A stretch of DNA of 64,000 bases from Chloroflexota bacterium (GCA_036821185.1 DAISKD010000002.1:17527-81526), one strand, 5' to 3'; numbered from the stretch's first letter, positions 3,234-57,515 are shown. Translations and numbers: made by a program. The notes: generated by a model not told the origin, from the letters alone.

Positions 3234-4490
<1,257 letters not shown>

Positions 4491-4506: not shown

Positions 4507-5718
4507 ATGGCTAGCAGTTTCAACGATTCAACTTCATATTTTTTCGCCTCGGAATCGGTGACCGAGGGGCACCCGGACAAGCTCTGCGACCAGATCTCAG
4601 ACGCCATCCTCGATGCCATTCTGGAGCACGATCCATATGGCAGGGTTGCCTGCGAGGTGGCGGTCACCGTGGGGCTGGTGATTGTCCTTGGGGAAATCAC
4701 CACCAAATGCTATGTGGAGATACCCGAAGTCGTCCGCAAGGTGGTAAAGGAGGTGGGTTACACCAGGCCCGAATACGGCTTCGATTACCAGTCTTGCGGC
4801 GTGCTGGTGTCCATAAAGCCACAGTCAGCCGACATCGACGCCGGGGTGAGCCAGGCTATGGAGGTACGAGAGAGAATAGCAGTCGATGATATCCTGGACA
4901 AGACGGGTGCCGGCGACCAGGGGATGATGTTCGGCTTTGCCTGCACCGAGACGCCCGAGCTCATGCCACTGCCCATCTCCCTGGCCAACAAACTGTGCCG
5001 CCGGATGGCACAGGCGAGGAAAGAGAAAATAATCCCCTACCTCCGCCCCGATGGCAAGTCGCAGGTGACCGTGGAATATGAGCGCGGCGTACCCAAGAGG
5101 ATAGACTCCATAGTCATCGGCGCCCACCATGACCCCGACATAGACGCCAGGACAATCCGCAACGACATAATCGAAAAGGTGGTCAAGGCAGTGGTGCCAG
5201 CGCACCTACTCGATGACCGCACCAGGTACTATGTCAACAGCGCCGGACGCTTCGTCATCGGTGGTCCTGTCTCCGATACCGGCTTTACCGGACGCAAAAT
5301 ACTGGTGGACACCTACGGTGGCGCCTGCCGCCATGGCGGTGGTTGCTTTTCGGGCAAAGACCCCACCAAGGTCGACCGTTCCGCCAGCTATATGGCGAGG
5401 CATGTGGCCAAAAATGTGGTCGCCGCGGGCCTTGCCGAACGCATTGAAGTGCAGGTGGCCTATGCCATAGGCGTCGCCCGCCCACTTTCGCTGTCCATTG
5501 AGACCTTCGGCACAGGGAAAGTCCCTGACAGGGTCATCCTGGAGCTGATTAAGAAGCACTTCGACTTCCGTCCCGAAGCCATTATCAGACATCTCGACCT
5601 GCGCCGCCCCATCTATCGCCAGACGGCCGTCTACGGGCACTTCGGCAGGGACGACCTCGACCTACCCTGGGAACGGACAGATAAGGCACAGACGCTCAGG
5701 GCTGAAGCTGGGCTATAA
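4507..5718 (+). CDS. metK: S-adenosylmethionine synthetase.
   Basis: The MetK signature [17 protein letters not shown] and the [17 protein letters not shown] motif are present. The protein is 403 aa. Confidence 0.95.
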
Positions 5719-8213: not shown

Positions 8214-8320
8214 CCGTAAGCCCCTGGGGCACAACCAGTCCCGCTGAGGAACCGGCGGCACACCCTTGATTGACAACTCCCACTGCTTTCTGTAAGCTAG
8301 ATTCTATCAGGCAGGGGGAA

Positions 8321-9631
8321 ATGGTGAAAACGGGAAGGGGGAAGACCAGCAAAAGGGGCTCATCCAGCACCAGCCCTCCACAGATAGGTGTGCCAACTAC
8401 CACTAAGACCAAGCCGGACGAACTTGTCGCTTTGAGCCGCGTTGCCGCAGCCATCAGTGGCATCACTGACCTCGACACCATCCTGCGCGTCGGACTGGAC
8501 ACCGTACTTGCCGTTCTGGACAGAGCCATAGGTGGCATAATGCTGTTGGATGAGGGCACCAGGACCCTCTACTACCGCGTATACCACGGAATATCCGATG
8601 ACTACGCCCAGCAGATGCGCATCCGACTTGGTGAGGGCATCGCCGGAAAGGTGGCTGAGAGCGCCAGAGCGATTATGCTGGCGGACATCTCCCAGAGCCC
8701 GGATGCCATCCACCCCGACCTTATCAGCAAAGAGGGCCTCAAGGCTTTCGTCAGCGTCCCGCTGATGTCTAAAGACAGAGTCCTCGGCGTCATGAACATC
8801 GCCAGCCACCTGCCCCACCAGTTCACCGAAAAGGACATCCACCTTCTTTATGCCACCGGCGACCTGCTCGGTCTGGCAATTGAACAAGCAAGGCTCTACG
8901 AGGAATTGCGCCGGGGCAGGGAGCGTTACCGTCGTTTGGCAAGGTTTGCCCTCATGGCCCAGGAAGACGAACGGAGGAGGATCTCCCGGGAGCTCCACGA
9001 TGAGACCAGCCAGGCACTTTCGGGTCTGGTGCTGAACCTGCAAGCGGTGATCGAAATGCTGGAGATGGTCGGCATCCGGGACAATAGGATCAAGGAGACG
9101 TTGAAGAAGGCGCACGGGCTGGCTGTTGAGGTGGGCAACGAGATCCATCGCCTGATCGTCAATCTCCGTCCCACTCTCCTCGACTCGCTGGGTTTGGTAC
9201 CCGCGCTCCGCCAGCATGCCGAGTCGGTGCTGGCGCCTCTGGGGATAAGTCTTTCCTTCCACTTCGATGAGATTGGCAAGACGATACCAAAAGACGTGGA
9301 AACCAACCTCTTCCGCGTAGCGCAAGGGGCTATAGGCAATATCCAGCAACATTCAAAGGCCACCAGCGCCTCTATCTCGCTGACGGTGGACGGCAATGAC
9401 CTGGTGATGCTCATCAGCGACAACGGTGTCGGCTTCGATGTTTCAGAGATAAAGACGGTGGAGCCCAGCGGGCGGGGTGCTGGCCTGTTCAGCATGAAAG
9501 AGCGGGTGCAGCTCATGGGCGGCAAATGTAATGTGAAGTCACAGCCGGGCAAGGGGACAACGGTCACGGTGCGAATACCGATGCAGTGGAGAACAGGCGA
9601 TGCCAAAGATAAGAGTCCTGGTAGTCGATGA
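8321..9631 (+). CDS. GAF-domain sensor histidine kinase of the HisKA_3/NarX type.
   Basis: Order of domains is GAF, then HisKA_3 H-box (ELHDETSQALSGL), then an HATPase_c G-box (DNGVGFD...GRGAGL). The start was chosen at the ATG after a GGGGGAA RBS; an in-frame TTG at 8270 is an alternative. Confidence 0.8.
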   Translation: MVKTGRGKTSKRGSSSTSPPQIGVPTTTKTKPDELVALSRVAAAISGITDLDTILRVGLDTVLAVLDRAIGGIMLLDEGTRTLYYRVYHGISDDYAQQMRIRLGEGIAGKVAESARAIMLADISQSPDAIHPDLISKEGLKAFVSVPLMSKDRVLGVMNIASHLPHQFTEKDIHLLYATGDLLGLAIEQARLYEELRRGRERYRRLARFALMAQEDERRRISRELHDETSQALSGLVLNLQAVIEMLEMVGIRDNRIKETLKKAHGLAVEVGNEIHRLIVNLRPTLLDSLGLVPALRQHAESVLAPLGISLSFHFDEIGKTIPKDVETNLFRVAQGAIGNIQQHSKATSASISLTVDGNDLVMLISDNGVGFDVSEIKTVEPSGRGAGLFSMKERVQLMGGKCNVKSQPGKGTTVTVRIPMQWRTGDAKDKSPGSR

Positions 9632-10256
9632 CCACGCCATAGTGCGCGATGGCATCTACGCCCTGCTGGGGCTGATGTCAGATATCGAGCTGGTGGGCGA
9701 AGCAGCCAACGGCAGGGAAGCTATAGAAAAGGTGGAAAAGCTGCTGCCAGATGTGGTGCTTATGGACGTCGCCATGCCCCTCATGGACGGACTGGAGGCA
9801 ACGCGCCGCATCTGCAAACAGTTCCCCGGGACCAAGGTGATTGCACTGACCCAGTACGATGACCACGAGTTTGTCTTCCCTATGTTCGAGGCTGGCGCTC
9901 GCGGCTTTATCTGCAAGACCGCCGCCTCCTCTGAGCTGGTCACTGCAATCCGCGCTGTCCACCGCGGCGACTCCTATCTATCACCATCGGTAGCCCGCGT
10001 CTTTGTAGAAAGGTACCAGCAACAGTTTGACTCGATGAGGGAACAAGACCCTTACCGGCAATTGACGGACAGGGAGAGGGAGATCTTGAAGCTACTGGCT
10101 GAAGGCTATACCACCCAGGAGATCGCCAGTATACTGGTGCTCAGCCCCAAGACAGTGGATAGGCACAAGACAAACCTTATGGCCAAGCTCGATATCCATA
10201 ACCGCGCCGACCTCATCAAGTACGCTATACGTAAAGGAATAATCACCCTGTCCTAG
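9600..10256 (+). CDS. LuxR/NarL-family response regulator, REC plus HTH.
   Basis: The receiver has DD...D...K residues (VVDDH, LMDVAMP) and there is a C-terminal LuxR HTH. It overlaps the kinase gene by 32 nt. Confidence 0.85.
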   Translation: MPKIRVLVVDDHAIVRDGIYALLGLMSDIELVGEAANGREAIEKVEKLLPDVVLMDVAMPLMDGLEATRRICKQFPGTKVIALTQYDDHEFVFPMFEAGARGFICKTAASSELVTAIRAVHRGDSYLSPSVARVFVERYQQQFDSMREQDPYRQLTDREREILKLLAEGYTTQEIASILVLSPKTVDRHKTNLMAKLDIHNRADLIKYAIRKGIITLS

Positions 10257-10442
10257 CCCGTTCATTTCCCGGTGCACAAAATTCCGGCGAAATATCAGTA
10301 GCTTCGGCAGCAAAAACTACAGTTTTTCCCGACGTCTTTTGGGGCATTCACCCCTGTGCTTCCTATAAGTAAGCGGCTAAACTTAGGATAAAGGCGTGAC
10401 GCCATGGTGCACCATTCAAGCGCCATGGCAAGGAGGTGGAAA

Positions 10443-11228
10443 ATGGAAGAGAAGAAGCTGAAGGTACTGGTGGTGGACAACGAAGAGGAGTTTATTGCAG
10501 ACGCGATTAAAGCATTGGAAAACTCCGGCTATATGGCACTCTGTGCCCGCTCGCTAGCTGAGGCGCAGGAAATGGTGCGCCGCCACAGACCGGACCTGGT
10601 CATCATCGGCACTATAGAGCCACGCGGCACCGCATTCCAGCTCCACCAGTGGCTGAGAAAGAGCCCTAGCTTCAGCAATGTCCCTCTGGTGGTGGTCGAT
10701 GCCCCTCCGGAGCAGAGGCTCACCAGAGGATGGCACTGGGAGGAGGGTATGCAACTGGAGGCCGAGGACTACTTTCAGAAACCTGTCGAAGTGGAGATGA
10801 TGATGGTCACCGTAAGGAAGGCGCTGGACAGGGCGACGAGAAAAATAAAGGTGCTCATAGTCGATGACCATGTGGTCGTTAGAGAAGGTATCCGCATTTT
10901 GCTCAGCTTGCAACCCGATATCCGGGTGGTGGGTGAAGCGGTCGACGGCACCGAAGCCATACAGAAGGCCCGTGAACTTATGCCCGATATCGTCCTCATG
11001 GACATCGCCATGCCGGGTATGGATGGACTGGAGGCTACCAAGGAATTGACCGAAGAGGGCATACCCTCCAGGGTATTAATGCTAACACAATATGCTGACG
11101 AAGCCAATGTACGTGCCAGTGAGAGAGTGGGTGCCTTTGGCTTCATCCCCAAAAAGACTGCCAGTTCCATGCTGCTCGCCGCCATAAGGGCGGCAGATAA
11201 AGGCGAGCGTATCCCCGTCCCACTCTGA
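10443..11228 (+). CDS. Tandem receiver-domain protein with no output domain; the first REC looks degenerate.
   Basis: REC1 has LVIIGTIEP where the phospho-Asp belongs (Asp replaced by Gly). REC2 has the canonical VDDH...LMDIAMPGMDG...K. There is a strong AGGAGGTGG RBS before the ATG at 10443. Confidence 0.75.
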   Translation: MEEKKLKVLVVDNEEEFIADAIKALENSGYMALCARSLAEAQEMVRRHRPDLVIIGTIEPRGTAFQLHQWLRKSPSFSNVPLVVVDAPPEQRLTRGWHWEEGMQLEAEDYFQKPVEVEMMMVTVRKALDRATRKIKVLIVDDHVVVREGIRILLSLQPDIRVVGEAVDGTEAIQKARELMPDIVLMDIAMPGMDGLEATKELTEEGIPSRVLMLTQYADEANVRASERVGAFGFIPKKTASSMLLAAIRAADKGERIPVPL

Positions 11229-11277: not shown

Positions 11278-13947
11278 TTGCAGCCAGTAACGATTACGCT
11301 GGATGGCAATGAGGTAAGCGGCTACGCCGGGATGAGCATCCTGGCCCTGGCGCGAGAGGCAAGAGTTCATATACCCACGCTGTGTCACGATGACCACCTG
11401 CCAGATATAGGCGCTTGCCGTCTGTGCATCGTTGAAGAGGAAAACACCGGTGCTCTTTTGGCGGCTTGTGTCACCCCTATAGCCTCGGGAATGGTGATCA
11501 ATACCCGCTCGCCACGGGTGGTCTCCCACCGCAAGACAATAGTGGAACTCATGCTGGCAAGCCACCCCGATGCCTGCCCAGTGTGCGATAAGGGCAACCG
11601 CTGCAAGCTGAGAGAGTTTGCCGCTGAGATGGGAATATCACCCACCCACTTCCACCGCATACCTCAGGCAGCAACTATTCAGGAGCTCAATCCGTTCGTC
11701 CAGCGCGACTCGAGCAAATGTGTTTTGTGTGCCAAGTGTATCAGGGCCTGCGAGGAACTTGTGGTTGAAGGTGTCCTGGACTACTTCCAGCGGGGCTTTA
11801 AGGCCAAGCCAACAACATTTGGAGACTTACCGCTGGAGGTCTCGGGATGCACCTTCTGCGGTACCTGCGTGACGCTCTGCCCCACCGGTGCCCTGATGGA
11901 AAAGGATGCGCCGTACCGCGGGACAACACGAGAAACGGTGCAGACAACCTGTCCCTTCTGCAGCTGCGGCTGCAGCATTGAACTGGAAGTTAAAGACAAC
12001 CGTGTCGTCCGTTCAACGCCCAGGGAAATAGAGGGCAGCGACTACCGCCCCCTCTGCATCCGGGGGAGCTACGGTTACGATTTCACCCATAGCCCGGAAA
12101 GGCTTACTATGCCCCTCATCAGGCGGGACGGGGATCTGCAGGAGACAAGCTGGGAGGAGGCGCTGAAGCTGGTAGCTGATGAGCTTGAAAGAGTAAAGGA
12201 AAGGTACGGCCCCAATAGTATCGCCGTGCTCGGCTCAGCCCGCTGTACCAACGAAGAAGCCTATTTACTGCAACGGTTTGCCAGGTGCACTATCGGCACC
12301 AATAACGTGGATAGCAGCAGCCGCCTCTATAGCGCCGCCACCATCCTGGGGCTGGCCACCACCATCGGACTGCCCCAACCAGCAAACCAAATAGAGGCGA
12401 TCGAAAGGTCCGATGTAATTATGGTTGTCGGTGCCGATCCCACCACCTCTGCACCAGCAGCAAGCTATGCCATCAAGCGAGCTGTCAAGAGCAAAGGTGC
12501 CTGTTTAATACTGATAGACCCACGCCGCACCAAGCTCGCCTTTTTCGCCACACTCCAGCTGCAGCTAAGACCGGGGACGGACATCGCACTGCTGAACGCC
12601 CTGGCACATGTAATCGTGAAGGAAGACCTGTTGGACAAGGGGTATGTGGTGCGACGCACAGATAATTTTGAGCTATTTGCCAGGTCGCTGGAACAATACA
12701 CCCCGGAATATGCCTCCGGAGTCACCGGTGTCCCCGCCGAGCAAATAGTGGCTGCCGCCAGACTGTATGCTAAGGCAAGGCAGGCTTCCATTATTTATGG
12801 CAACGGTGTAACTCAGTACCCCACCGGGACTGACTGCATTAAGGCAATCGCTAATCTGGCGTTGCTGACCGGCAATGCCGGGCGAAAAGGCGGGGGCATT
12901 ATTTCTCTCCACAGGGAAAGCAACAGCTACGGTGTCATGGCTATGGGACTGTCACCCCGATTGTTCCCCGGGTTCCGCAGCGTGACCGACAAACTGGAAA
13001 GGGAAAGGCTTGAAGTGCTCTGGGGGGTAAAACTACCCGATCCATTGGGGCTGACAGCCCTTGAGATGCTACAGGAGGCAAGATCGGGGAAAATTAGAGC
13101 GCTATACATCTACGGCGAAGACCCCATGTCCAGCTTTCCCGACCGCCATCTGGTCAGCGAAGCCCTCAGCTCGCTGGAACTCCTTGTCGTCCAGGACATC
13201 TTCCTCACCGAGACAGCGAAGCTAGCAGCCGCGGTGCTCCCTGGAACCAGCCCGGCTGAGAAAGATGGTACCACCATAAACTTCGAGGGAAAGATAAGGA
13301 GGTTCCGAAAAGCGGTGGCACCACCCGGTGAGAGTCGCCCCGACTGGCAGATATTGGCCGAGATCGCGTCCAGAATGAAAAGACCGCTGCCGTTCTCCCG
13401 CTTTGAGGACATTGTAACGGAGATGGAGGACTGTATGCCTGGCTATCAGTATTACGGCGGTGAGGGCAAGGAATTCGACATTCAGACCACGGGCAACAAC
13501 CAGCAACCCGTGGAGGAGGCACCACGCGGCTTCCCCCGCTTCTGGCCTGTCGAATATTCTGAAGCTCCCACCCCGGATGACCGCGACTACCCGTTCCTCC
13601 TGCTTACCGGAGGCACTTTCCCTTACGCTAGCAGTAATTTATGGTTGCTCAAAGCACCGAGGCTGAGAAGGTTCCTTTCGCAGGGGTATGCCGAGCTTAG
13701 TCCTGAGGATGCCCGCAGCCTGGGTCTGGGCAACGGTGACCTGGCGAAGGTCACCTCGGCTGCGGGCACAGTGGTGGCCCCGGTAAGGGTGTCAACCGAC
13801 ATGCCACCGGGAATGGTCTTTGTCCCATGCTCATTCCCTGAGATAGCGGTGAACGGGCTTTTCCACATCATACTCGATACACAATCGAAAACACCGGCAT
13901 TTAAGTCCTGCCGGGTGAAGGTCGAAAGGGTGGTTATAAATGACTGA
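11278..13947 (+). CDS. FdhF/FdsA-like molybdopterin oxidoreductase subunit with a NuoG-like N-terminus. The catalytic Sec/Cys position is Tyr, making it SfrA-like.
   Basis: The N-terminus has a 2Fe-2S motif (CHDD...CRLC...C), then 4Fe-4S ferredoxin motifs, then a CPFCSCGC cluster. The molybdopterin domain is closely similar to E. coli FdhF, but the motif reads VDSSSRLYSAATILG where FdhF has VDCCARVUHGPSVAGL. A TTG start is assumed. Confidence 0.8.
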   Translation: MQPVTITLDGNEVSGYAGMSILALAREARVHIPTLCHDDHLPDIGACRLCIVEEENTGALLAACVTPIASGMVINTRSPRVVSHRKTIVELMLASHPDACPVCDKGNRCKLREFAAEMGISPTHFHRIPQAATIQELNPFVQRDSSKCVLCAKCIRACEELVVEGVLDYFQRGFKAKPTTFGDLPLEVSGCTFCGTCVTLCPTGALMEKDAPYRGTTRETVQTTCPFCSCGCSIELEVKDNRVVRSTPREIEGSDYRPLCIRGSYGYDFTHSPERLTMPLIRRDGDLQETSWEEALKLVADELERVKERYGPNSIAVLGSARCTNEEAYLLQRFARCTIGTNNVDSSSRLYSAATILGLATTIGLPQPANQIEAIERSDVIMVVGADPTTSAPAASYAIKRAVKSKGACLILIDPRRTKLAFFATLQLQLRPGTDIALLNALAHVIVKEDLLDKGYVVRRTDNFELFARSLEQYTPEYASGVTGVPAEQIVAAARLYAKARQASIIYGNGVTQYPTGTDCIKAIANLALLTGNAGRKGGGIISLHRESNSYGVMAMGLSPRLFPGFRSVTDKLERERLEVLWGVKLPDPLGLTALEMLQEARSGKIRALYIYGEDPMSSFPDRHLVSEALSSLELLVVQDIFLTETAKLAAAVLPGTSPAEKDGTTINFEGKIRRFRKAVAPPGESRPDWQILAEIASRMKRPLPFSRFEDIVTEMEDCMPGYQYYGGEGKEFDIQTTGNNQQPVEEAPRGFPRFWPVEYSEAPTPDDRDYPFLLLTGGTFPYASSNLWLLKAPRLRRFLSQGYAELSPEDARSLGLGNGDLAKVTSAAGTVVAPVRVSTDMPPGMVFVPCSFPEIAVNGLFHIILDTQSKTPAFKSCRVKVERVVIND

Positions 13948-17400: not shown

Positions 17401-17492
17401 AACGGAGCTTCCAGGAGACCGAGCTCGGGCTTTCCGAAGAGCAGGCTAGGTACGATGCTAGGCGGTGCCTGCGGTGCGACCTGGAGAGTTAG
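14424..17492 (+). CDS. Fusion protein: NuoE-like 2Fe-2S domain, NuoF-like NADH/FMN/4Fe-4S module, 2x[4Fe-4S] ferredoxin, and a GltD/NfnB-like FAD-NAD(P)H oxidoreductase. It is SfrB-like.
   Basis: Motifs seen are CQGTGC...CHGFC, GAGAFVCGEETALI with ESCGKCVPCR (NuoF N3), a CxxCxxCxxxCP pair, a GltD N-terminal cluster (CGRICHHPCEGRC), GxGxxG twice (VIGAGPCG and VIGGGNVALD), and FAGGD. Confidence 0.8.
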   Translation: MGPRITVLVCQGTGCISSRSDAVYTAFQEQVTALGLANVKVDFTGCHGFCEQGPNVVIEPEGIFYTHVQVDDVPEIVSSHLRDGIAVERLFYRDPLSGKPIPHYSEINFYAKQQRVILNNCGHINPESIEDYINSGGFRALRKALLEMTPEQVIEEVKESGLRGRGGAGFPTWRKWEFCRSALGSQKYVICNADEGDPGAFMDRSILEADPYAVIEGLTIAGYAIGATQGYIYVRAEYPLAVSRVRHAVERCREKGYLGSNILGSGFNFTIEIKEGAGAFVCGEETALIASIESRRGMPRPRPPFPAQSGLDGKPTIINNVKTLASVPLIIANGAKWYASIGTEKSKGTAVFALTGKVANSGLVEVPMGTPLSTIIFDIGGGIPRGKRFKAVQTGGPSGGCIPAQFLDTPVDYENLARLGSIMGSGGMVVMDETTCMVEVARYFLSFTQMESCGKCVPCRLGTRQMLEILTRITQGKGRDSDIDTLLALARTVKECSLCGLGQTCPNPVLTTLTYFRDEYEAHIKEKKCPAAVCDALMISPCQHTCPVGINIPKYVAHIAAGEYFESIETVRERNPFPAICGRICHHPCEGRCRRGELDEPVAIRALKRFVADWYFERIDELPPPQPFPRTKKEKVAVIGAGPCGLSCAYFLAQMGYGVTVFEAAAVGGGMPAVAIPDFRLPREVIDKEIDYIVKRGVEIRYNTPLNASFTIEHLRSSGYDAVFIAAGAQKSQTIGIPGESEALSGFYYGLKFLRDVKLGRQLKVGRRVAVIGGGNVALDASRTALRLGAEEVNVYYRRSREEMPVTEVEFNEAVAEGIKIHFLVGPTRIVSRDSSVAGLQCVRMKLGEPDESARRKPIPIPGSEFFVEADTVIAAVGQAADLSFLPPDSALERSRWERLVVDSNTLSTNVPGVFAGGDFVFGPGMIIDAIASGRRGALAIDKYLRNDTTRVHMYDTKEPGTRPAEKPTTEEEETWQVAFRPRPPTLPIEMRKRSFQETELGLSEEQARYDARRCLRCDLES

Positions 17493-17500
17493 GAGGTGCC

Positions 17501-18148
17501 ATGAAATCCATAACCAGACAGAAACCGTTCGAAGAGATCGCCGGACAACTCCGTGGCTTCAGCCGTATCTTCATCGCCGGTTGCGGTACCTGTGCCACCC
17601 TGACCCACACCGGCGGGGTAGAGGAGGTGGCAGCTATGAAGGAAAAGCTGGAGTCGGAAGGCAAGTTTGTCACCGGCTCTATAGTTATCCCGGTCGCCTG
17701 CGACGACATCACCGAGACGCTGGCAGGCGAGCACGAGGGCTCCATACTCAGCGCCCATGCCATACTGGTGATGGCGTGCGCCCTGGGCGTGCACAGGATA
17801 GCCAACAACGCATTCAACAAGCCGGTCATCCCCGCACTGGACACACTGTTCATCGGCATGGACTATGGACAAGGGGTGTTCCACGAGGTCTGTGCCCAAT
17901 GCGGTCAATGTGTTCTGGGCGAAATGGCCGGCATCTGCCCCATTACCGCCTGCCATAAAGGGCTGCTCAACGGTCCCTGCGGCGGCACCAATAACGGGAA
18001 GTGTGAGGTGGACAAGGAGAAAGACTGCGCCTGGACGCTCATCTACAACCGACTTAAGGATCAAGGCAGGCTCGATATGATGCGAAAATACCAGCGACCC
18101 AAGAATTATCAGGTCGTTCCCAGGCCACGGACTATCAAGGTGTTCTGA
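17501..18148 (+). CDS. metV: MetV-like protein: the Cys-rich Fe-S partner of methylene-THF reductase, containing the MTHFR C-terminal-like domain.
   Basis: About 215 aa with clustered Cys (CGTCATL; CAQCGQCVLGEMAGICPITACHKGLLNGPCGG). An AGGAGGTG RBS precedes it, and it lies directly upstream of metF as in acetogen metVF. Confidence 0.7.
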   Translation: MKSITRQKPFEEIAGQLRGFSRIFIAGCGTCATLTHTGGVEEVAAMKEKLESEGKFVTGSIVIPVACDDITETLAGEHEGSILSAHAILVMACALGVHRIANNAFNKPVIPALDTLFIGMDYGQGVFHEVCAQCGQCVLGEMAGICPITACHKGLLNGPCGGTNNGKCEVDKEKDCAWTLIYNRLKDQGRLDMMRKYQRPKNYQVVPRPRTIKVF

Positions 18149-18174: not shown

Positions 18175-19059
18175 ATGCCTTCAAAGTTTAAACAAGCGCT
18201 CGACTCCAATAAGTTCGTCATCACCAGTGAGATAGGCCCACCTAAGGGGACAAACCTGGAGAAGATGTACCACCACATCGACCTGCTTAAAGATAAGGTT
18301 GATGCCCTCAACGTCACCGACCACCAGAGCTCCGTCATGCGCTTTCCCTCCATCGGTGGTTGTCTAGCTATAAAAGAGCACGGCGGTGAGCCCATCTTGC
18401 AGATGACCTGCCGCGACCGCAACCGTTTGGCACTTCAGGCAGAACTCCTCTTCGCCTACACCAGAGGGATCAGGAATGTCCTCTGTCTCACCGGCGATGC
18501 CGTGCCCGTGGGCGACCACAAGGAAGCTAAAGGCGTCTTCGACCTCGACTCCGTGCAGTTGCTCCGGACGATACGGACACTGGAATCAGGAAAGGACGTC
18601 GGTGGAAATGACCTCGATGGTGCTGTGGAGTTCTGCGCCGGCGCTACCGTCACCCCAGAGGCAAACCCCATCGAACCACAGCTGATCAAATTCGAGAAAA
18701 AAGTGGAGGCTGGCGCCGAGTTCTTCCAGACACAGGCAATCTACGACCTGGACAAATTCGCCAAATTCATGCAGTTTGCTCGTCAGTTCCCTGTGAAAAT
18801 CCTCGCCGGCATCGTTCTGCTCTCTTCAGCTAGAATGGCAAAATACATGACAGAAAATGTACCCGGTATCTTCGTCCCTCAATACCTAATAGACGAGCTG
18901 GCAAACGCGCCCAAAGGCATGGCGCTTAACAAAGGCATCGAGATAGCTGGCAGGATGATAGCCACCATAAAGAAAGAGGGTATCTGCGACGGTGTCCACA
19001 TCATGGCTATCGGCAGGGAGGAGGTCGTCCCGGATATCATCCAGGCAGCTGGTATTTGA
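18175..19059 (+). CDS. metF: 5,10-methylenetetrahydrofolate reductase.
   Basis: A 294-aa MetF-like TIM barrel with typical N-terminal motifs (ITSEIGPPKG...) and a flavin-binding region. Confidence 0.85.
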   Translation: MPSKFKQALDSNKFVITSEIGPPKGTNLEKMYHHIDLLKDKVDALNVTDHQSSVMRFPSIGGCLAIKEHGGEPILQMTCRDRNRLALQAELLFAYTRGIRNVLCLTGDAVPVGDHKEAKGVFDLDSVQLLRTIRTLESGKDVGGNDLDGAVEFCAGATVTPEANPIEPQLIKFEKKVEAGAEFFQTQAIYDLDKFAKFMQFARQFPVKILAGIVLLSSARMAKYMTENVPGIFVPQYLIDELANAPKGMALNKGIEIAGRMIATIKKEGICDGVHIMAIGREEVVPDIIQAAGI

Positions 19060-51314: not shown

Positions 51315-52280
51315 TTATGACGAGCCCGCTTCAAGAGGCGTTTTTCTCTTTACCATGCCGGACCAGTGCGTAAAATTAAGCCCTTCTCTCCTTGCTATCT
51401 CCACCAGCGATTCCATAACGTCCGCCGTGAGCATGTCCACCCCTTCTAGAGACCAAGGGCAACCCAGCCGGCGGTACTTTGCCGAGCAAGTATTATTGAA
51501 AGCTAGCAAATCATAGCGTTCTGCCGTGGGGAGATTGTCTCTGATGAAACGGGCTATCCCCCTGATATTGTCTTCGCTATCGGTATACCCCGGTATCACC
51601 GGCGTCCGCACCCACATGGGTTTGCCCAGCCTAGCTATCTCGCGGGCGTTATTCAGCACCGTCTGGAGCGAAATCCCCGTGTATTCCAGATGTCTTGCCT
51701 CGTCTATTATCTTTATATCGTAGAGAACAAGATCAGCCATCCTGATTAGAGGCTGCAACCTCGTCCAGGTTACCCCTCCAGAGGTGTCCAGCACGACGTG
51801 TATCCCTTCCCGGGAGGCAGCCTGCATCAGGGCAAGCGAAAATTCAGGTTGCATCGCCGGCTCACCACCGGATAAAGTCACTCCCCCTCCTGACTTTTCA
51901 TAAAATATTCTGTCGCGCAGCACCTGCTCAAGCACTTCATTTACCGTGACGCGTCGCCCGATTACTTCCAGGGCTGCAGCCGGACATGCCCTGACACAGT
52001 CGCCACAACAATCGCAAATATCTCTAGCGATGAGCATACCGTCGGAGGTGAGCTGCAGAGCCGACTTAGCGCAAGCTTTTAAGCATTCCGTTGCTCCGAT
52101 ACATCGAACCTCGTACCATACGAGGTGCGGCTGCATCTTCATCCCCTCAGGGTTGTGACACCAGGGACATCGCAATGGGCATCCTTTGAGAAACACCGTG
52201 GTGCGGATCCCTGGACCATCCTCGGTGGAGTGGCGCTGAATATTGAAAATCATTCCGGTAAGATTGTTCGATTCAGTCAA
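51315..52280 (-). CDS. Glycyl-radical enzyme activating protein (radical SAM, PflA-like, with an extra ferredoxin-like domain).
   Basis: Contains the CPLRCPWCHN radical-SAM motif, two CxxCxxCxxxC clusters, and a SAM-binding GGEP. Confidence 0.85.
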   Translation of the reverse strand: MTESNNLTGMIFNIQRHSTEDGPGIRTTVFLKGCPLRCPWCHNPEGMKMQPHLVWYEVRCIGATECLKACAKSALQLTSDGMLIARDICDCCGDCVRACPAAALEVIGRRVTVNEVLEQVLRDRIFYEKSGGGVTLSGGEPAMQPEFSLALMQAASREGIHVVLDTSGGVTWTRLQPLIRMADLVLYDIKIIDEARHLEYTGISLQTVLNNAREIARLGKPMWVRTPVIPGYTDSEDNIRGIARFIRDNLPTAERYDLLAFNNTCSAKYRRLGCPWSLEGVDMLTADVMESLVEIARREGLNFTHWSGMVKRKTPLEAGSS

Positions 52281-52336: not shown

Positions 52337-54808
52337 TTATATTTCGCCAAACTCAGTTCGAGCTATTATGTCGTCCTGCAGCGGCTTCGAGAGGTCTATG
52401 AAACGGAAAGAGTAACCTGAAACCTTAACCACAAGGTCAGGGTAATTCTCGGGGTGCTTCTGAGCATCTTTCAAGGTCTCTACATCCACCGGATTGAACT
52501 GTATATGTCTCCCACCCAGTAGGAAGTAAGCCTCGATCATAGAAGTTAATTTGTCTAGACCTTCGTCCGTCTTTATAACACCGGGTGAGAGTCTCATATT
52601 GAACGTCGTACCGCTGCTCAAACAAGCCTTGCACGCTCTGGAAACCGAATGGAGTACCGCCGTGGCTCCGTTAGTTTCCGTACCATTGGTGGGAGATATA
52701 CCGTTGGACACCGGTGCCCTGGCTAACCGACCATCAGCTGAAGCTCCACACACCAGCCCCTCGGTCACGTGAGTCCCGGACGATATCAGCAACGGACGAT
52801 AGCATCCTCCTAACACCCTCGACCTATGGCTTCTGACCTCATGCTCTAAGACGCTGGTAACCCACTCGGCGAGTTCGTCAGCCCTGAGGTCATCATTCCC
52901 GTACTTTGGAGCCTTACGCAGCAGCAGTTGCCGGACGCTCTCAGCACCGGCAAAGTTGTTGCGCAGATGGTTTACCAGCTCCTCCATGGTGAGAAGCTTC
53001 TCCTCAAACACCGCCCAGCGGATGGCACTCAGCGAGTTCGTTACAGTGGCCAGCCCTTGCGCACCCAGTGTTACGTGGCTGTACCGTGCCCCTCCCTGAG
53101 CTATATCGTAGCCGCTTTCCAGACATCCCTCTATCGTTGATGACAGCAGTGGATTGGGGAAATATTTGGCGATCACCTCGTCTTTGATGTCCCCATGCCT
53201 GACCGCGGCACTCACCACGTAAGAAAGCTGTCCTAGAAAAGCCCCCTTTACATCCTCGAAAGTTTTGAAGGTGCTGGCAGGAGGAGTCGGCGCCCCCACA
53301 CGTTTCCCGTCCCGGAATCGGCATCCTTCGTTCAAAGCAAGCTCCAGCACCTGAGTCAAATGAATACCGGTGCCGGCGGTATAGCCATTGTTATTGCACG
53401 AACCGGTAGGTTCGGCACACCCCACGATGGCATAGTCCCGCGCATCCTCAAGCGAATAACCGTCCTTCAACAGGTCCCTGATTATCACCTCGTCGTTGAA
53501 AAATGCAATGCCAGCACCTATACGGAGCGTCTGGCAAGCTCTTTCCAGGAAAGCCCGCGGTGTTCTAGCAGAAATCCTTACGCTGAAGCTCTTGCGCAGA
53601 CCACCTCCAAGGGCATCGTGGGCATCGAGGAACAGGTAAGAGAGCTCGTTGGTCGCATCTTCGCCGTTTCGGTCAACCCCTCCGATGGTGACATTGTTCG
53701 GTCCGAAAACGAGGAAGTGCGATACCTTTATCAGGTACTCCTCCAGATACTCCAACGCCTGTTCTGGCGTTATCAGCCCCTTTTCAATATCCTGCTTATA
53801 ATACGGGTAAAGGAGCTGGTCGAGCCTGCCTACAGTGTGGACCCCGTCATCGCCATAGCTGATTGCCAAGACGACTTGTGTCATCCACACCGATTGCAGT
53901 GCCTCCAAAAAGCTCCGCGGTGGATTAGCCGGCACCCACCGACAGCGTTCGGCTATCTCCAACAACTCTTTTCTTCTCTGTCCCTCCACCTTCTGAGCCA
54001 TCTCTTCAGCCAAAGCCGCGTACCGATTGGAAAAATCGCATACCGCCCTGGCTGCCACTTGAACAGCCTCATAGAAATTCTTTCTGGTCTCGTAATCCTT
54101 GCTATCCTCCTTGAGCTCGCTTAGGGCTTTCGTTGCCCACTCATATATACCATTGAAGCCAATGTTCAGCACCCGTCTCAGCCCAACGATAATATGACCC
54201 TGCAGGTCCACGCTATGTGCCACCTCGGTAGCATCGGGGGCAACGCCCCTTTTTCTCCAAAACTCGGCTTTCAGGCTGCGGAGGTCCCTTCCCTCCCAAT
54301 AAGGGAGTATCTCCTCCTTCAACTCCCGATATACCTCCTCCGGCATATTGATAACCTCACGGTCGAACTCCGGACTATGTCCGCCCATACCCGACAACAG
54401 TTTCAGTCTCTCTTCAGAAAGTTTACCTTCGCGAATCAACAGCGCCTTTCGGATGGCGGCGCTTACCAGGCTTCTTTCGATCCCCACCACACTGGCTACC
54501 GGCTTGAAAGTCTTCGAGCCCACCAGCAGTTCATCCTCGTTTATCCTGATAGACATGTTACCAAGCGTCTCCCTCAAGGCATGTGCTGCACGGAGAGCTG
54601 GCGGCGCCTTCTCCATCTGCTTCCAGGTCCTGGTGTAGTAACGCATTCGCTCGATATCTACTTCGTATGGGCTGGCGAACAGACGCTGCTTCAACCGTTG
54701 TATCCTGTCTGAAAGTGGCCTCTGCTTAACTTGGGTAACTGCCAGGGTCATAACTGTTATCTCCTTTCCATAAATTTCAAATGGCCCTACCGCAACTATT
54801 GTACACAC
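52337..54808 (-). CDS. Glycyl radical enzyme, PFL-fold, eliminase-type Cys loop (paralog 1).
   Basis: The C-terminal glycine-radical motif is VKVSGYSFRFIDL (Gly codon about 52415-52417). The Cys loop is IVGCAEPTG, a single Cys plus Glu rather than the Cys-Cys of PFL. The protein is 823 aa. Confidence 0.85.
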   Translation of the reverse strand: MCTIVAVGPFEIYGKEITVMTLAVTQVKQRPLSDRIQRLKQRLFASPYEVDIERMRYYTRTWKQMEKAPPALRAAHALRETLGNMSIRINEDELLVGSKTFKPVASVVGIERSLVSAAIRKALLIREGKLSEERLKLLSGMGGHSPEFDREVINMPEEVYRELKEEILPYWEGRDLRSLKAEFWRKRGVAPDATEVAHSVDLQGHIIVGLRRVLNIGFNGIYEWATKALSELKEDSKDYETRKNFYEAVQVAARAVCDFSNRYAALAEEMAQKVEGQRRKELLEIAERCRWVPANPPRSFLEALQSVWMTQVVLAISYGDDGVHTVGRLDQLLYPYYKQDIEKGLITPEQALEYLEEYLIKVSHFLVFGPNNVTIGGVDRNGEDATNELSYLFLDAHDALGGGLRKSFSVRISARTPRAFLERACQTLRIGAGIAFFNDEVIIRDLLKDGYSLEDARDYAIVGCAEPTGSCNNNGYTAGTGIHLTQVLELALNEGCRFRDGKRVGAPTPPASTFKTFEDVKGAFLGQLSYVVSAAVRHGDIKDEVIAKYFPNPLLSSTIEGCLESGYDIAQGGARYSHVTLGAQGLATVTNSLSAIRWAVFEEKLLTMEELVNHLRNNFAGAESVRQLLLRKAPKYGNDDLRADELAEWVTSVLEHEVRSHRSRVLGGCYRPLLISSGTHVTEGLVCGASADGRLARAPVSNGISPTNGTETNGATAVLHSVSRACKACLSSGTTFNMRLSPGVIKTDEGLDKLTSMIEAYFLLGGRHIQFNPVDVETLKDAQKHPENYPDLVVKVSGYSFRFIDLSKPLQDDIIARTEFGEI

Positions 54809-55004: not shown

Positions 55005-57515
55005 TTAGTTAAGTTGAAACTCGGTCCGGGCGATGATGTCGTCCTGGACACGCTTGGGCAGATCGATGAAACGGAAGGAGAAACCAGAGACCTTGACCAT
55101 CAGGTCGAGATAGTTCTCCGGGTGCTCCTGCGCATCCAGCAACATCTCTTTGCTTAGGGGGTTAAACTGCACCTGTCTGCCACCGAGAGCGAAATAGCCC
55201 TCGATCAAAGAGGCGAACTTGTTCAAGCCCTCTTCGGTCTTTATGCCCAGCGGGTTAACGATGGCATTAAGTATGGTACCGTCGCTCACCGGGACGGCAC
55301 AGACCTTTGCTGCCGAACACATAACAGCCGTCAACCCGTTGCGCTCCGTCCCATTCGAGGGGGTGATCCCGTTGGACAGCGGCGTCCCGGCCAGCCTGCC
55401 ATCAGGGGTAGCACCGATGGTCGCTCCCCAGGCAACATGCGTCGCCGAGGAAAGCATGTACGGTCTGTGGACACCTCCCATCCAGAACCTGTGCTTCCTC
55501 ACCTCCCTGTTATATACATCGGTAATCCACACCGCCAGCTCATCAACGGAAGGGTCATCATTGCCATACTTTGGAGCACGGAGCAAACGCTGCCTTAAGT
55601 CCTCTCTCCCCTGGAAATTGTTGCGCAGACACTCGGCAAGTTTTTCCATCGTGACCAGCTTCTGGTCGAAGACCGCCCACTTGATGGCTGCCAGTGAGTC
55701 GGCAGCTGTAGCCAGCGAGCAGTTGCCGATCGCCGAGTGGTTATAACGGGCACCACCTCGAGTAACGTCCTCGCCGGACTCCACACAGCCTTCGATCGTC
55801 GCCGAAAGCAATGGCAACGGATAATGTTCGGCAATCACCTGATCCTTTAAGTACCCAGCTTTCACACATCCTGCGACAGACCGTGAAAGCTGCTCTTCGA
55901 TCGCCTTCTTAAAATCTTCGAACGTGTTGAGGGAGGACACAGGGGCTGCAGGCGGTGCCACCTGCTTCCATTTCACCGGGTACCTTCTGCCCTCATGCAA
56001 CACCAACTCTAGGACAGCCGCCAGCAGGACACCGTTGGTGGCGGTGTAGCCGTTATTGTTCCCGGTACCAGTGGGCTCAGCACAGCCCACAATAGAGTAG
56101 TCCCTGGCATCTTCCAGCGAATAGCCATCCTCCAGAAGCCCCTTGATCACCACATCGTCATTGTAAAAAGCGACGCCGGCACAGTCCCGGTGGACTTCAC
56201 ATGCTTTAGTCAGGAACTCCCGCGGTGTCTTTCCTGGATAAATCCTTACCGCCAGCCCGGACCGCCCACAGCCCTTCAGTCTCCTGTGGGCTTCAAGGAA
56301 AAGATAGCTCACCTCATTTACTGCATCCTCGCCGTCCCTGTCGATTCCACCGATGGTCACATTATTGGGACCAAAATATACATTGGTGGCGAGCTTTACA
56401 ATGTACTCCATGATGGCCTCAAGGGCTTGTTCTCGGGTGAGCCTCCCAGCTTCAATATCACGCTTGTAGTATGGATAGAGGAACTGGTCCACCCTGCCCG
56501 GGCAGGTAATAGAGTTGCCACCGTAGCTGATCAACACCGCCACCTGGGTCAGCCAGACAGCCTGAACCGCTTCCATGAAGTTCCGTGGCGGGTTGGCTGG
56601 CACCCAGCGGCAACGCTCAGCTATTTCCAATAACTCTCCCCTCCTCTGTCCGCTAGCCTTTTGTGCCATCTCTTCAGCCAGCCGGGCATAGCGCTCGGCA
56701 AAATGGCACACCGCCCCGGCAACAATCTGCACCGCCTCCAGAAAGTCCTTCTTCCTTAGATAAGCCTTTTCCCCAAGCTTCCCCCTCTCGAAATCCGCCC
56801 GAAATGCAGCCAGCTTCTCTGCCGCCTGACGGGCAATGCCCTTGAAACCCATATCCAGAACCTTCTTAATCCCCACAATCACATGTCCCTGGGGCGGAAC
56901 ATCGCTGACAAACCACCCCCCCAGCGCTCTGGTACTGCCATCCTCAGCGATGATGCCGTTCTCCTTCCAGGCAGCCAGCTTGAGGACATGGACAGTCTTG
57001 TCCTTCCAGTAAGGCACTATCTCCTCTTTAAGCTCGCGGTACTCTTCCTCCGAAATGTTCGGCATTTCCTTCCAGAAACTCGGGCCCCTTGCCCCGAGGG
57101 CACCTCCGCGGACTTCTGCAGCCTCCGCCACCCATTCCTCCACCGTTTTCCCGGTGCCGTACAGAGATAACGCCAGGAAGATATGGGGTTGACCCACAGA
57201 AGCCTCAACATAAATGGGATCAGCCCAGTCTTTGCTCGACTTGGAGCCTACGATCAGCTCCTCATCCTCGATCCTGATGGGTATATTATGCAGCGTCTCT
57301 TCCAGCCCCTTGGCGGCACGAAAACACGGGGGCTGTCCTTCGGTCTGCTTGTATGCCCTGGTATAGTGCTTTGCCCTTTCGATGTCCAGCTTGAAAGTGG
57401 TGGCAAGTAAGCGCTCCCGCATCTTCCTGATGCGCTCCGGGACATATCCCGCCTGCGAAGCAACCCCGGCCTCCTGCCGGCTTACCGCGATTTTAGTAGT
57501 CTCCATGGCGTCCAC
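55005..57515 (-). CDS. Glycyl radical enzyme, PFL-fold, eliminase-type Cys loop (paralog 2).
   Basis: 836 aa with VKVSGFSFRFIDL (Gly codon about 55083-55085) and IVGCAEPTG. It is closely paralogous to the 823-aa protein. Confidence 0.85.
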   Translation of the reverse strand: MDAMETTKIAVSRQEAGVASQAGYVPERIRKMRERLLATTFKLDIERAKHYTRAYKQTEGQPPCFRAAKGLEETLHNIPIRIEDEELIVGSKSSKDWADPIYVEASVGQPHIFLALSLYGTGKTVEEWVAEAAEVRGGALGARGPSFWKEMPNISEEEYRELKEEIVPYWKDKTVHVLKLAAWKENGIIAEDGSTRALGGWFVSDVPPQGHVIVGIKKVLDMGFKGIARQAAEKLAAFRADFERGKLGEKAYLRKKDFLEAVQIVAGAVCHFAERYARLAEEMAQKASGQRRGELLEIAERCRWVPANPPRNFMEAVQAVWLTQVAVLISYGGNSITCPGRVDQFLYPYYKRDIEAGRLTREQALEAIMEYIVKLATNVYFGPNNVTIGGIDRDGEDAVNEVSYLFLEAHRRLKGCGRSGLAVRIYPGKTPREFLTKACEVHRDCAGVAFYNDDVVIKGLLEDGYSLEDARDYSIVGCAEPTGTGNNNGYTATNGVLLAAVLELVLHEGRRYPVKWKQVAPPAAPVSSLNTFEDFKKAIEEQLSRSVAGCVKAGYLKDQVIAEHYPLPLLSATIEGCVESGEDVTRGGARYNHSAIGNCSLATAADSLAAIKWAVFDQKLVTMEKLAECLRNNFQGREDLRQRLLRAPKYGNDDPSVDELAVWITDVYNREVRKHRFWMGGVHRPYMLSSATHVAWGATIGATPDGRLAGTPLSNGITPSNGTERNGLTAVMCSAAKVCAVPVSDGTILNAIVNPLGIKTEEGLNKFASLIEGYFALGGRQVQFNPLSKEMLLDAQEHPENYLDLMVKVSGFSFRFIDLPKRVQDDIIARTEFQLN

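Follow-up and report, generated by a model that had tools for sequence, protein, structure and literature searches.

Subunits built on the molybdopterin-oxidoreductase fold that are cofactor-less or catalytically dead are already known, namely NuoG and the formate dehydrogenase (Fdh)-like domain of NfnA/StnC. NuoG/Nqo3 combines an N-terminal [2Fe-2S] and [4Fe-4S] chain with a molybdopterin-oxidoreductase fold that carries no cofactor, and it is partnered with NuoE and NuoF. NAD+-dependent formate dehydrogenases (FDHs), represented by FdsA of R. capsulatus (6TG9) and C. necator and by FDH1 of M. extorquens (7VW6), are also partnered with NuoE- and NuoF-type subunits; in FdsA, Cys386 ligates the molybdenum and His387 and Arg587 are catalytic (PMC7171172). 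Cryo-electron microscopy of C. saccharolyticus NfnABC revealed an Fdh-like domain whose pterin site is incomplete and shows no density for a pterin, and the A2-A4-A5 cluster branch of NfnA was called a probable remnant (PMC11829005). The system described here lies in a 64,000-nucleotide stretch of DNA from a Chloroflexota bacterium (GCA_036821185.1 DAISKD010000002.1:17527-81526; the window), where a gene for an FdhA-like subunit heads a five-gene operon that also encodes a NuoE-like protein, a NuoF-like flavoprotein, and the MetV and MetF subunits of a MetVF-type methylenetetrahydrofolate reductase (MTHFR). The FdhA-like subunit has kept the fold and iron-sulfur clusters of an FDH alpha subunit but not its catalytic residues. 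We lean towards reading it as a non-catalytic descendant of an NAD-type FDH alpha subunit that would serve as a BfuA/NuoG-type wire or scaffold of an MTHFR complex.

The 889-residue subunit has the complete domain architecture of an NAD-type FDH alpha subunit, with Pfam matches to Fer2_4, a NuoG-type His-ligated 4Fe-4S domain, a 2x[4Fe-4S] ferredoxin domain, Molybdop_Fe4S4, Molybdopterin and Molydop_binding. Its best matches among solved structures are FdsA-type alpha subunits (E values 1e-157 to 1e-162; phmmer against the Protein Data Bank, PDB), and these alignments cover nearly the whole protein. Molybdopterin-oxidoreductase domains II-IV are all present but lack the catalytic residues. In the phmmer alignment to R. 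capsulatus FdsA (6tg9_A, E=2e-161), whose relevant blocks are gap-free, Tyr351 falls on the ligand Cys386 and Ser352 on His387. Both lie in the segment VDSSSRLYSAATILGL (residues 344-359), and residues 340-360 contain no cysteine. Two further conserved residues are replaced. Ser347 stands where 93% of canonical FDHs (42 enzymes with C-H and LRGQNN, out of the 150 best 50%-identity cluster representatives) have a Cys, four positions ahead of the ligand, and Arg262 replaces the conserved Lys of CxKG between the proximal [4Fe-4S] cluster and the pterin, the equivalent of Lys44.

The open reading frame (ORF) includes positions 12301-12345, where a sequence-only reading of this DNA had placed Tyr and Ser at the Sec/Cys and His positions of formate dehydrogenases. 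The FdsA alignment bears this out, with coordinates and residue numbers correct, and the subunit likewise contains the GEDP, VVQDIF and DWQI blocks and the CPFCSCGC motif that were described there. The same reading held that the equivalent of the essential Arg333 of FdhF is retained, which is not the case: His545 aligns with FdsA Arg587, and Arg546 follows one residue later on Gly588, with Ser550 on Val592. This register is secure, as the flanks of SLHRESN in the FdhA-like subunit and PLRGQNN in FdsA are anchored and there is no indel. Against the curated Fdh-alpha and NuoG profile models, a check named in that reading, the subunit scores below both cut-offs (TIGR01591, 614.9 bits against 666.25; TIGR01973, 375.6 bits against 470.05). 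With the Cys/Sec-His-Arg triad and the Lys44 equivalent replaced, and with a TIGR01591 score under the cut-off, the subunit is very unlikely to have canonical FDH activity, in agreement with the earlier expectation. Because the Mo/W ligand, the catalytic His and Arg, and the Lys that couples the pterin to the proximal cluster are all lost, formate oxidation is not predicted and a functional Mo/W-bis-pterin centre is probably absent. An electron-transfer or scaffold role, also proposed in that reading, has a precedent in NfnA, whose Fdh-like domain is free of pterin (PMC11829005).

These substitutions are shared by a large protein family. A homologue search covering 5.8 billion proteins returned more than 100 full-length relatives with 54-84% identity. 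Most come from metagenome bins of Chloroflexi/Dehalococcoidia, and many carry the source label 'formate dehydrogenase alpha subunit' (JGI, NCBI). In a scan of GTDB with one genome per species, at least 414 genomes encode relatives; the locus counts given below come from the best 80 loci, nearly all of which belong to metagenome-assembled genomes (MAGs) of Dehalococcoidia/Dehalococcoidales. Tyr occupies the former ligand site in 97 of 104 homologues by pattern parsing, in 31/32 family members by multiple alignment and in 68 of the 70 parsable GTDB loci. Arg262 is found in 31/32 family members, compared with Lys in 42/42 canonical FDHs, and Ala392 in 32/32. The family consensus LQRENN stands against LRGQNN in all 42 canonical enzymes.

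The Mo region contains 78 columns that are at least 90% conserved in the 42 canonical FDHs, of which the Tyr family keeps 53 and loses 25. The lost columns include K262R, C347G/S, C351Y, H352N/S, N387D, H392A, R545Q/H, G546R, Q547E, V550G/S, R671G, R779T/S/G and H852S, and the remainder are other changes, mostly conservative or partial. At the level of motifs, GxNPxxxHP becomes GADPxxxAP, RGQ becomes Q/H-R-E, ERR becomes EG(R/K) and TTGR becomes TG(G/x)(T/S), while a His of the C-terminal cap domain becomes Ser. Several of the replaced positions, among them the His and Arg residues of conserved motifs, are presumably contacts of the molybdopterin guanine dinucleotide (MGD) or pterin cofactor. 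Mean column identity within the family is 0.65 in the Mo domains, 0.675 in the loops of the former active site and 0.72-0.80 in the Fe-S domains. The sporadic degeneration implied by the sequence-only reading does not agree with this pattern, in which the loops are no less conserved than the remainder of the domain. Because the replacement residues and the loops are themselves conserved, the substitutions are remodelling under purifying selection and not decay.

The same data bear on whether the Tyr codon could be a sequencing or assembly error (TAT for TGT or TGA), or the gene a pseudogene in decay, left from a genuine formate dehydrogenase. TAT is one transition away from the Cys codon TGT, but the ORF is intact over 889 residues and about a dozen other cofactor or catalytic positions have changed coherently. 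The presence of Tyr in independent assemblies of at least 68 species-level genomes, together with purifying selection, rules this explanation out, and we assign it a negligible probability.

Loss of the catalytic residues extends beyond the Tyr family. Of the 150 nearest cluster representatives (P0121-P0270), the canonical triad is present in 42 and missing from about 107; in this sequence neighbourhood true FdhA proteins may be fewer than non-catalytic 'FdhA' proteins. A rough neighbour-joining tree groups the canonical enzymes together and places the Tyr family among other non-canonical clades, in which the ex-ligand residue is Ser, His, Met, Asn or another residue. Three more distant clades with genomic context, at 41-42% identity, are all linked to MTHFR: P0126 (Ser) and P0134 (His) have an identical five-gene operon, and P0125 (His) has a MetF gene immediately upstream of the FdhA-like gene. 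Across these clades the loss of catalytic residues is thus old and shared, with Tyr a subclade-specific state. Since Tyr, Ser and His occur in sister clades with the same operon, Tyr is argued to be a filler and not a new ligand, and the proposal that it acts as a new metal ligand was downgraded on this ground.

Two further observations concern the wider superfamily. Many of the approximately 107 non-canonical representatives share the extra Cys of the proximal motif, described below, and the Lys-to-Arg change at the Lys44 position. In a locus of an approximately 42% identical clade with His (L087, 6117-9688), a divergent MetF, 32% identical to that of the window, immediately precedes the FdhA-like gene, and the examined portion of this contig shows no MetV.

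The Fe-S part of the subunit is fully retained. Motifs are present for five clusters, comprising a [2Fe-2S] cluster, a His-ligated [4Fe-4S] cluster whose HxxxCxxCxxxxxC motif is uninterrupted, two further [4Fe-4S] clusters and the Mo-proximal [4Fe-4S] cluster. All 20 ligands are invariant across the Tyr family, including C225, C228, C232 and C260 of the proximal cluster. Within the proximal motif, the additional Cys230 is found in 24/24 and 32/32 family members and in 68/70 loci (family motif CP[FY]C[GS]CGC). It is rare in canonical FDHs (4/42) and enriched in other non-canonical relatives (27/107).

An AlphaFold2 model built from a 148-sequence alignment reached a predicted local distance difference test score (pLDDT) of 91.4 and a predicted TM-score (pTM) of 0.92; an alignment of 24 close relatives alone gave an unusable model (pLDDT 48.8). 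The modelled fold is closest to FDH alpha subunits, with query-based TM-scores (TMq) of 0.94 to 7vw6_A (FDH1) and 0.93 to 6tg9_A, compared with 0.70-0.78 for NuoG and 0.64-0.69 for NfnA/StnC, a ranking of global folds. With FdsA and FDH1 the subunit shares the domain order and the five Fe-S motifs, at 33% identity in Foldseek. It differs from them in lacking equivalents of Cys386, His387, Arg587 and Lys44. Its likeness to NuoG, in the N-terminal cluster chain, the molybdopterin-oxidoreductase fold and the NuoE/NuoF partners, is more distant, as both the TIGR01973 score and TMq place it much closer to FDH. The predicted complex would also be soluble, with no membrane-arm genes nearby. Cap domain IV is full-length, whereas NfnA aligns to residues 104-558 of the FdhA-like subunit only.

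A fold of this completeness would suit a subunit that is still a pterin protein, holding Mo/W-bis-pyranopterin guanine dinucleotide (bisPGD) or metal-free MGD in a remodelled site. Tyr351 would then be a ligand or second-sphere residue, and the site would carry out a reaction other than formate oxidation or relay electrons through the pterin from the proximal cluster to a docked partner. The cap domain, the 53 retained canonical-invariant positions, the conservation of the remodelled residues Tyr351, Arg262 and Ala392, and the invariant proximal cluster with its extra Cys230 all speak for such a site. Against it, the known Mo/W-bisPGD ligands are Cys, Sec, Ser, Asp or none, and Tyr is not known to serve as one. 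The Lys equivalent and the His/Arg residues of the GxNPxxxHP, TTGR and FHH-type motifs are replaced, and the residue at the ligand position varies between Tyr, Ser and His among sister clades with the same operon. Furthermore, NfnA, the nearest analogue studied by experiment, contains no pterin (PMC11829005). We consider a retained pterin centre of this kind improbable, and the FdhA-like subunit probably binds no bis-MGD at all.

The genomic setting of the subunit, which the sequence-only reading did not take up, points to an MTHFR-linked complex of the Bfu/Nfn kind and away from a role in formate metabolism. The operon runs in the order FdhA-like, NuoE, NuoF::GltD, MetV, MetF (Table 1), with overlaps of 8 nucleotides between the first two genes and 11 nucleotides between the second and third. 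All five parts occur in this order in 40 of the 41 GTDB loci with at least 5.3 kb of downstream sequence, and MetF is the most conserved operon protein (77-93% identity across loci). Comparison with the MetV ORF of a related locus (L083) indicates that the true start of MetV is probably the ATG at 17501 (MKSITRQ...).

The third gene encodes a flavoprotein with two distinct parts. Residues 1-542 match best to the bifurcating BfuB subunits, namely NiFe-HydB (7t2r_B, 790 bits), HydB, NfnB and StnB, whereas the non-bifurcating NuoF and FdsB reach about half that score. This part contains the ligands of an N-terminal [2Fe-2S] cluster (C14, C19, C50, C54) and of a NuoF-type [4Fe-4S] cluster (C457, C460, C463, C503). 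It also carries the BfuB His/Cys 'B2' site, in which C440, T478, H527, C533 and C538 correspond to A. mobile C438, C476/Thr, H525, C531 and C536; this site is diagnostic of bifurcating BfuB (Schut et al. 2022). The alignment to HydB and StnB stops at KKCPAAVC538, and a GltD-like module begins at residues 544-546, in place of the C-terminal ferredoxin-like B3/B4 domain of BfuB.

The GltD-like module has two [4Fe-4S] motifs, an FAD-type GxGxxG motif (GAGPCG) and a GxGxxA motif (GGGNVA), a type assigned to NADP(H) by the Stn authors (PMC7483475). Residues 544-1023 match NfnA/StnC residues 102-567, with residues 546-1022 aligned to NfnA 102-567. The module starts with SPCQHTCP and ends at the C-terminus with RRCLRCDLES (residues 1007-1026, window 17432-17492). 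The C-terminal RCLRC aligns to the N-terminal RCLxC of NfnB/GltD, to NfnA 564-567 and to StnC 563-566. It thus represents a displaced N-terminal segment, and the module is circularly permuted as in NfnA/StnC. The exception to the conserved operon is a Bacillota-labelled MAG (JBFLVI010000003.1; L083, 10194-11828), in which the NuoF ORF ends after KKCPA, at the fusion junction. The entire GltD module is missing there and MetV and MetF still follow, which may be a natural deletion variant or an assembly artefact.

The first three proteins of the operon have, by these domain matches, the inventory of NfnABC/StnABC in another fusion topology. Both systems (PDB 9BOV, 9N5U and 8OH5 for Nfn/Stn) share a BfuC-like and a BfuB-like component, a permuted GltD NADPH-FAD module and an Fdh-like subunit without a pterin site. 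In Nfn/Stn the GltD cassette is inserted in the BfuA (NuoG-like) subunit, whereas here it is attached to the C-terminus of the BfuB-like subunit. MetV and MetF, unlike in Nfn/Stn, belong to the conserved operon. Compared with FDH, the flavoprotein partner belongs to the bifurcating BfuB type and carries a fused GltD module, MetVF is co-encoded and no FdsD was seen. SfrAB of Geobacter sulfurreducens, compared by its published description only, pairs an FdhA-like SfrA with a GltD-like NADPH subunit, SfrB. It is described as having two subunits and no NuoE- or NuoF-like partners or MetVF, all of which the window system has; the papers found on SfrA/SfrB gave no information on the active site.

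This shared inventory allows the redox trio to be an independent NADH/NADPH(/ferredoxin) transhydrogenase of the Nfn/Stn type whose domains have been shuffled and which is only co-transcribed with MetVF because of a shared C1/redox role; the FdhA-like subunit would remain a non-catalytic scaffold. S. ovata offers a precedent, as stnABC lies directly downstream of metVF and Stn was nevertheless purified as a separate three-subunit transhydrogenase (PMC7483475). Co-transcription without partnership is harder to reconcile with the five-gene order, which holds in 40/41 species loci and across clades of about 40% identity, and with the MetF that directly abuts the FdhA-like gene in L087. The Bacillota-labelled MAG, in addition, lacks the GltD module but keeps MetVF. 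The GltD module also occupies the usual position of the BfuB ferredoxin-side clusters, so the enzyme is no simple copy of Nfn. A stand-alone transhydrogenase is therefore an unlikely explanation, if a serious one.

Association of MetVF with NuoEFG homologues has been noticed before. Yi et al. (2021) reported that metFV is preceded by NuoEFG homologues in Dethiosulfatarculus sandiegensis and 'widely in Desulfobacterales and Chloroflexi', and speculated on a new, possibly bifurcating, 'X type' MTHFR, which was not studied (PMC8515935). Gene arrangement and taxa match the operon of the window. That account does not analyse the NuoG homologue and covers neither its FDH ancestry, the Tyr/Ser/His substitutions and the NuoF::GltD fusion nor the BfuB signatures. 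This one X-type paragraph is the only mention of the complex that we found in the literature (PMC8515935), and the Bfu family survey of Schut et al. 2022 lists no MTHFR type. The operon was thus noticed earlier, but the FdhA-like variant and the domain make-up are newly analysed here. A related arrangement is the HdrABC-MvhD-MetVF MTHFR of Moorella thermoacetica, in which MetVF with a flavin/Fe-S module was proposed to bifurcate NADH electrons. There, too, MetVF and a flavin/Fe-S module are co-encoded, with an unrelated electron-input module (HdrA-type as opposed to NuoEF/Bfu-type).

On the reading of the FdhA-like subunit as a wire or scaffold, the proteins would form a soluble multi-flavin complex. 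Its core would consist of three proteins: the FdhA-like subunit, the NuoE-like [2Fe-2S] protein and a NuoF-like subunit for FMN and NADH to which the GltD-like FAD/NADP(H) module is fused. Through this core, electrons would move between pyridine nucleotides, possibly also ferredoxin, and a physically associated MetVF, which would interconvert methylene- and methyl-tetrahydrofolate (THF). A candidate reaction is the NAD(P)H-driven reduction of methylene-THF coupled to the reduction of a lower-potential acceptor; in reverse, methyl-THF could be oxidized with NAD+, pulled by NADPH or reduced ferredoxin. Potentials quoted in the literature are about -200 mV for CH2-THF/CH3-THF, -280 mV for NADH, -380 mV for NADPH and -500 mV for ferredoxin. 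With these values, methylene-THF reduction could drive the reduction of a lower-potential acceptor, and NADPH or reduced ferredoxin could pull an otherwise unfavourable oxidation of methyl-THF with NAD+. The oxidative direction would fit organisms with an oxidatively operated pathway, such as Desulfobacterales.

Of all features of the operon, the NADP(H)-FAD module in place of B3/B4 is the most intriguing, and it permits a bolder proposal. The complex could be a new type of MTHFR on a Bfu core, in which the gutted FDH domain docks MetV and the proximal [4Fe-4S] cluster, with its extra Cys230, hands electrons to it. Methylene-/methyl-THF conversion would then be coupled by bifurcation or confurcation to NADH/NADPH transhydrogenation or to ferredoxin. 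In this specific form the proposal is speculative, and we would not expect all of it to hold. MetV has no relative among solved structures and there is accordingly no docking precedent.

Several observations weigh against the subunit being a pterin-free wire or scaffold of an MTHFR complex. The strictly conserved proximal [4Fe-4S] cluster, with its invariant extra Cys230, would be a dead end in a pterin-free protein unless a partner docks there. DPR, VVQD-F, GE-P, Asn859 and Lys876 are retained at about 100% in the Tyr family, as against 29-61% in other non-canonical relatives. These motifs, which are invariant in canonical enzymes, we take to be nucleotide-binding motifs of both Rossmann-like domains. 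Together with the full-length cap, the retention of these FDH-invariant positions may indicate some nucleotide or pterin binding, and with Cys230 and the proximal cluster it keeps a pterin- or nucleotide-binding alternative alive. In T. kivui HydABC the B3/B4 domain is reported to be required for bifurcation (cited in PMC11829005), and the flavoprotein here lacks this domain. The separate purification of S. ovata Stn, finally, means that gene adjacency is no proof of a complex.

The findings have consequences for annotation and for the bioenergetics of one-carbon metabolism. Hundreds of proteins from Dehalococcoidia and other MAGs that are labelled 'formate dehydrogenase alpha subunit' represent a systematic misannotation, and metabolic reconstructions that derive formate use or CO2 reduction from this family are probably wrong. 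What these genomes encode is most likely a common, uncharacterised, folate-reducing (MTHFR) complex of uncultured Dehalococcoidia. Which electron donor MetVF-type MTHFRs use, and how they couple energy, is a long-standing question in the bioenergetics of acetogens and sulfate reducers. The operon offers a compact and experimentally tractable five-gene candidate, with two pyridine-nucleotide sites, for this coupling. If the proposal of a new MTHFR on a Bfu core is correct, it would address how MetVF is driven in the reductive and oxidative Wood-Ljungdahl pathway. The Tyr family also provides a well-sampled intermediate between working NAD-type FDHs and the cofactor-less scaffolds of the NuoG and NfnA type, and the operon shows the Nfn/Stn GltD cassette attached at a different host site.

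Table 1. Coordinates of the operon genes, key sites of the FdhA-like subunit and upstream regulatory genes in the window
Feature	Position	Strand	Remarks
FdhA-like subunit	11278..13947	+	889 aa; TTG start; no in-frame stop
CPFCSCGC, aa 225-232	11950..11973	+	CxxCxxxC part of the Mo-proximal [4Fe-4S] motif; extra Cys230
Tyr351 (TAT, 12328-12330) and Ser352 (AGC, 12331-12333)	12328..12333	+	Positions of the Mo-ligating Cys/Sec and the catalytic His
His545-Arg546	12910..12915	+	His545 at the catalytic Arg position (FdsA Arg587 / FdhF Arg333); Arg one residue out of register
NuoE/BfuC-like thioredoxin-like [2Fe-2S] protein, 160 aa	13940..14422	+	Pfam PF01257, 3.6e-47; four Cys
NuoF/BfuB-like flavoprotein fused to GltD/NfnB-like module, 1026 aa	14412..17492	+	Pfam and PDB matches
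MetV, small Fe-S subunit of MetVF-type MTHFR	17465..18148	+	Pfam PF12225, 3.1e-36
MetF, methylenetetrahydrofolate reductase catalytic subunit	18175..19059	+	Pfam PF02219, 1.6e-43
GAF-domain sensor histidine kinase (HisKA_3/HATPase_c)	8270..9631	+	Pfam
LuxR/NarL-type response regulator (REC + GerE HTH)	9600..10256	+	Pfam, NCBIfam; position conserved in related loci
Tandem-receiver (REC-REC) protein, no output domain	10404..11228	+	Pfam Response_reg twice; conserved directly upstream of the FdhA-like gene

Three regulatory genes precede the operon (Table 1). The histidine kinase, the LuxR-type regulator and the REC-REC protein occur together upstream in 44 of the 51 GTDB loci whose upstream sequence extends to 3.2 kb or more, and this conservation suggests dedicated, signal-dependent control of the MTHFR module. 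In one lineage (L001, 4696-7371; L002, 995-3670), the tandem-receiver gene and the FdhA-like gene are separated by an inserted integrase of phage type together with three small ORFs, which split the regulators from the operon.

The wider surroundings hold no other Wood-Ljungdahl or formate genes within the window that would decide the physiological direction of the MTHFR. A few kb upstream of the operon, genes for S-adenosylhomocysteine hydrolase (ahcY, 3237-4490) and S-adenosylmethionine (SAM) synthetase (metK, 4507-5718) are encoded on the + strand. These methyl-cycle genes may hint at an anabolic role in methionine/SAM supply, instead of or besides a catabolic one. Further downstream, on the - strand, two paralogous glycyl-radical enzymes resembling pyruvate formate-lyase (PFL; 823 and 836 aa) are encoded beside a radical-SAM activating enzyme (51315-52280, 52337-54808 and 55005-57515).

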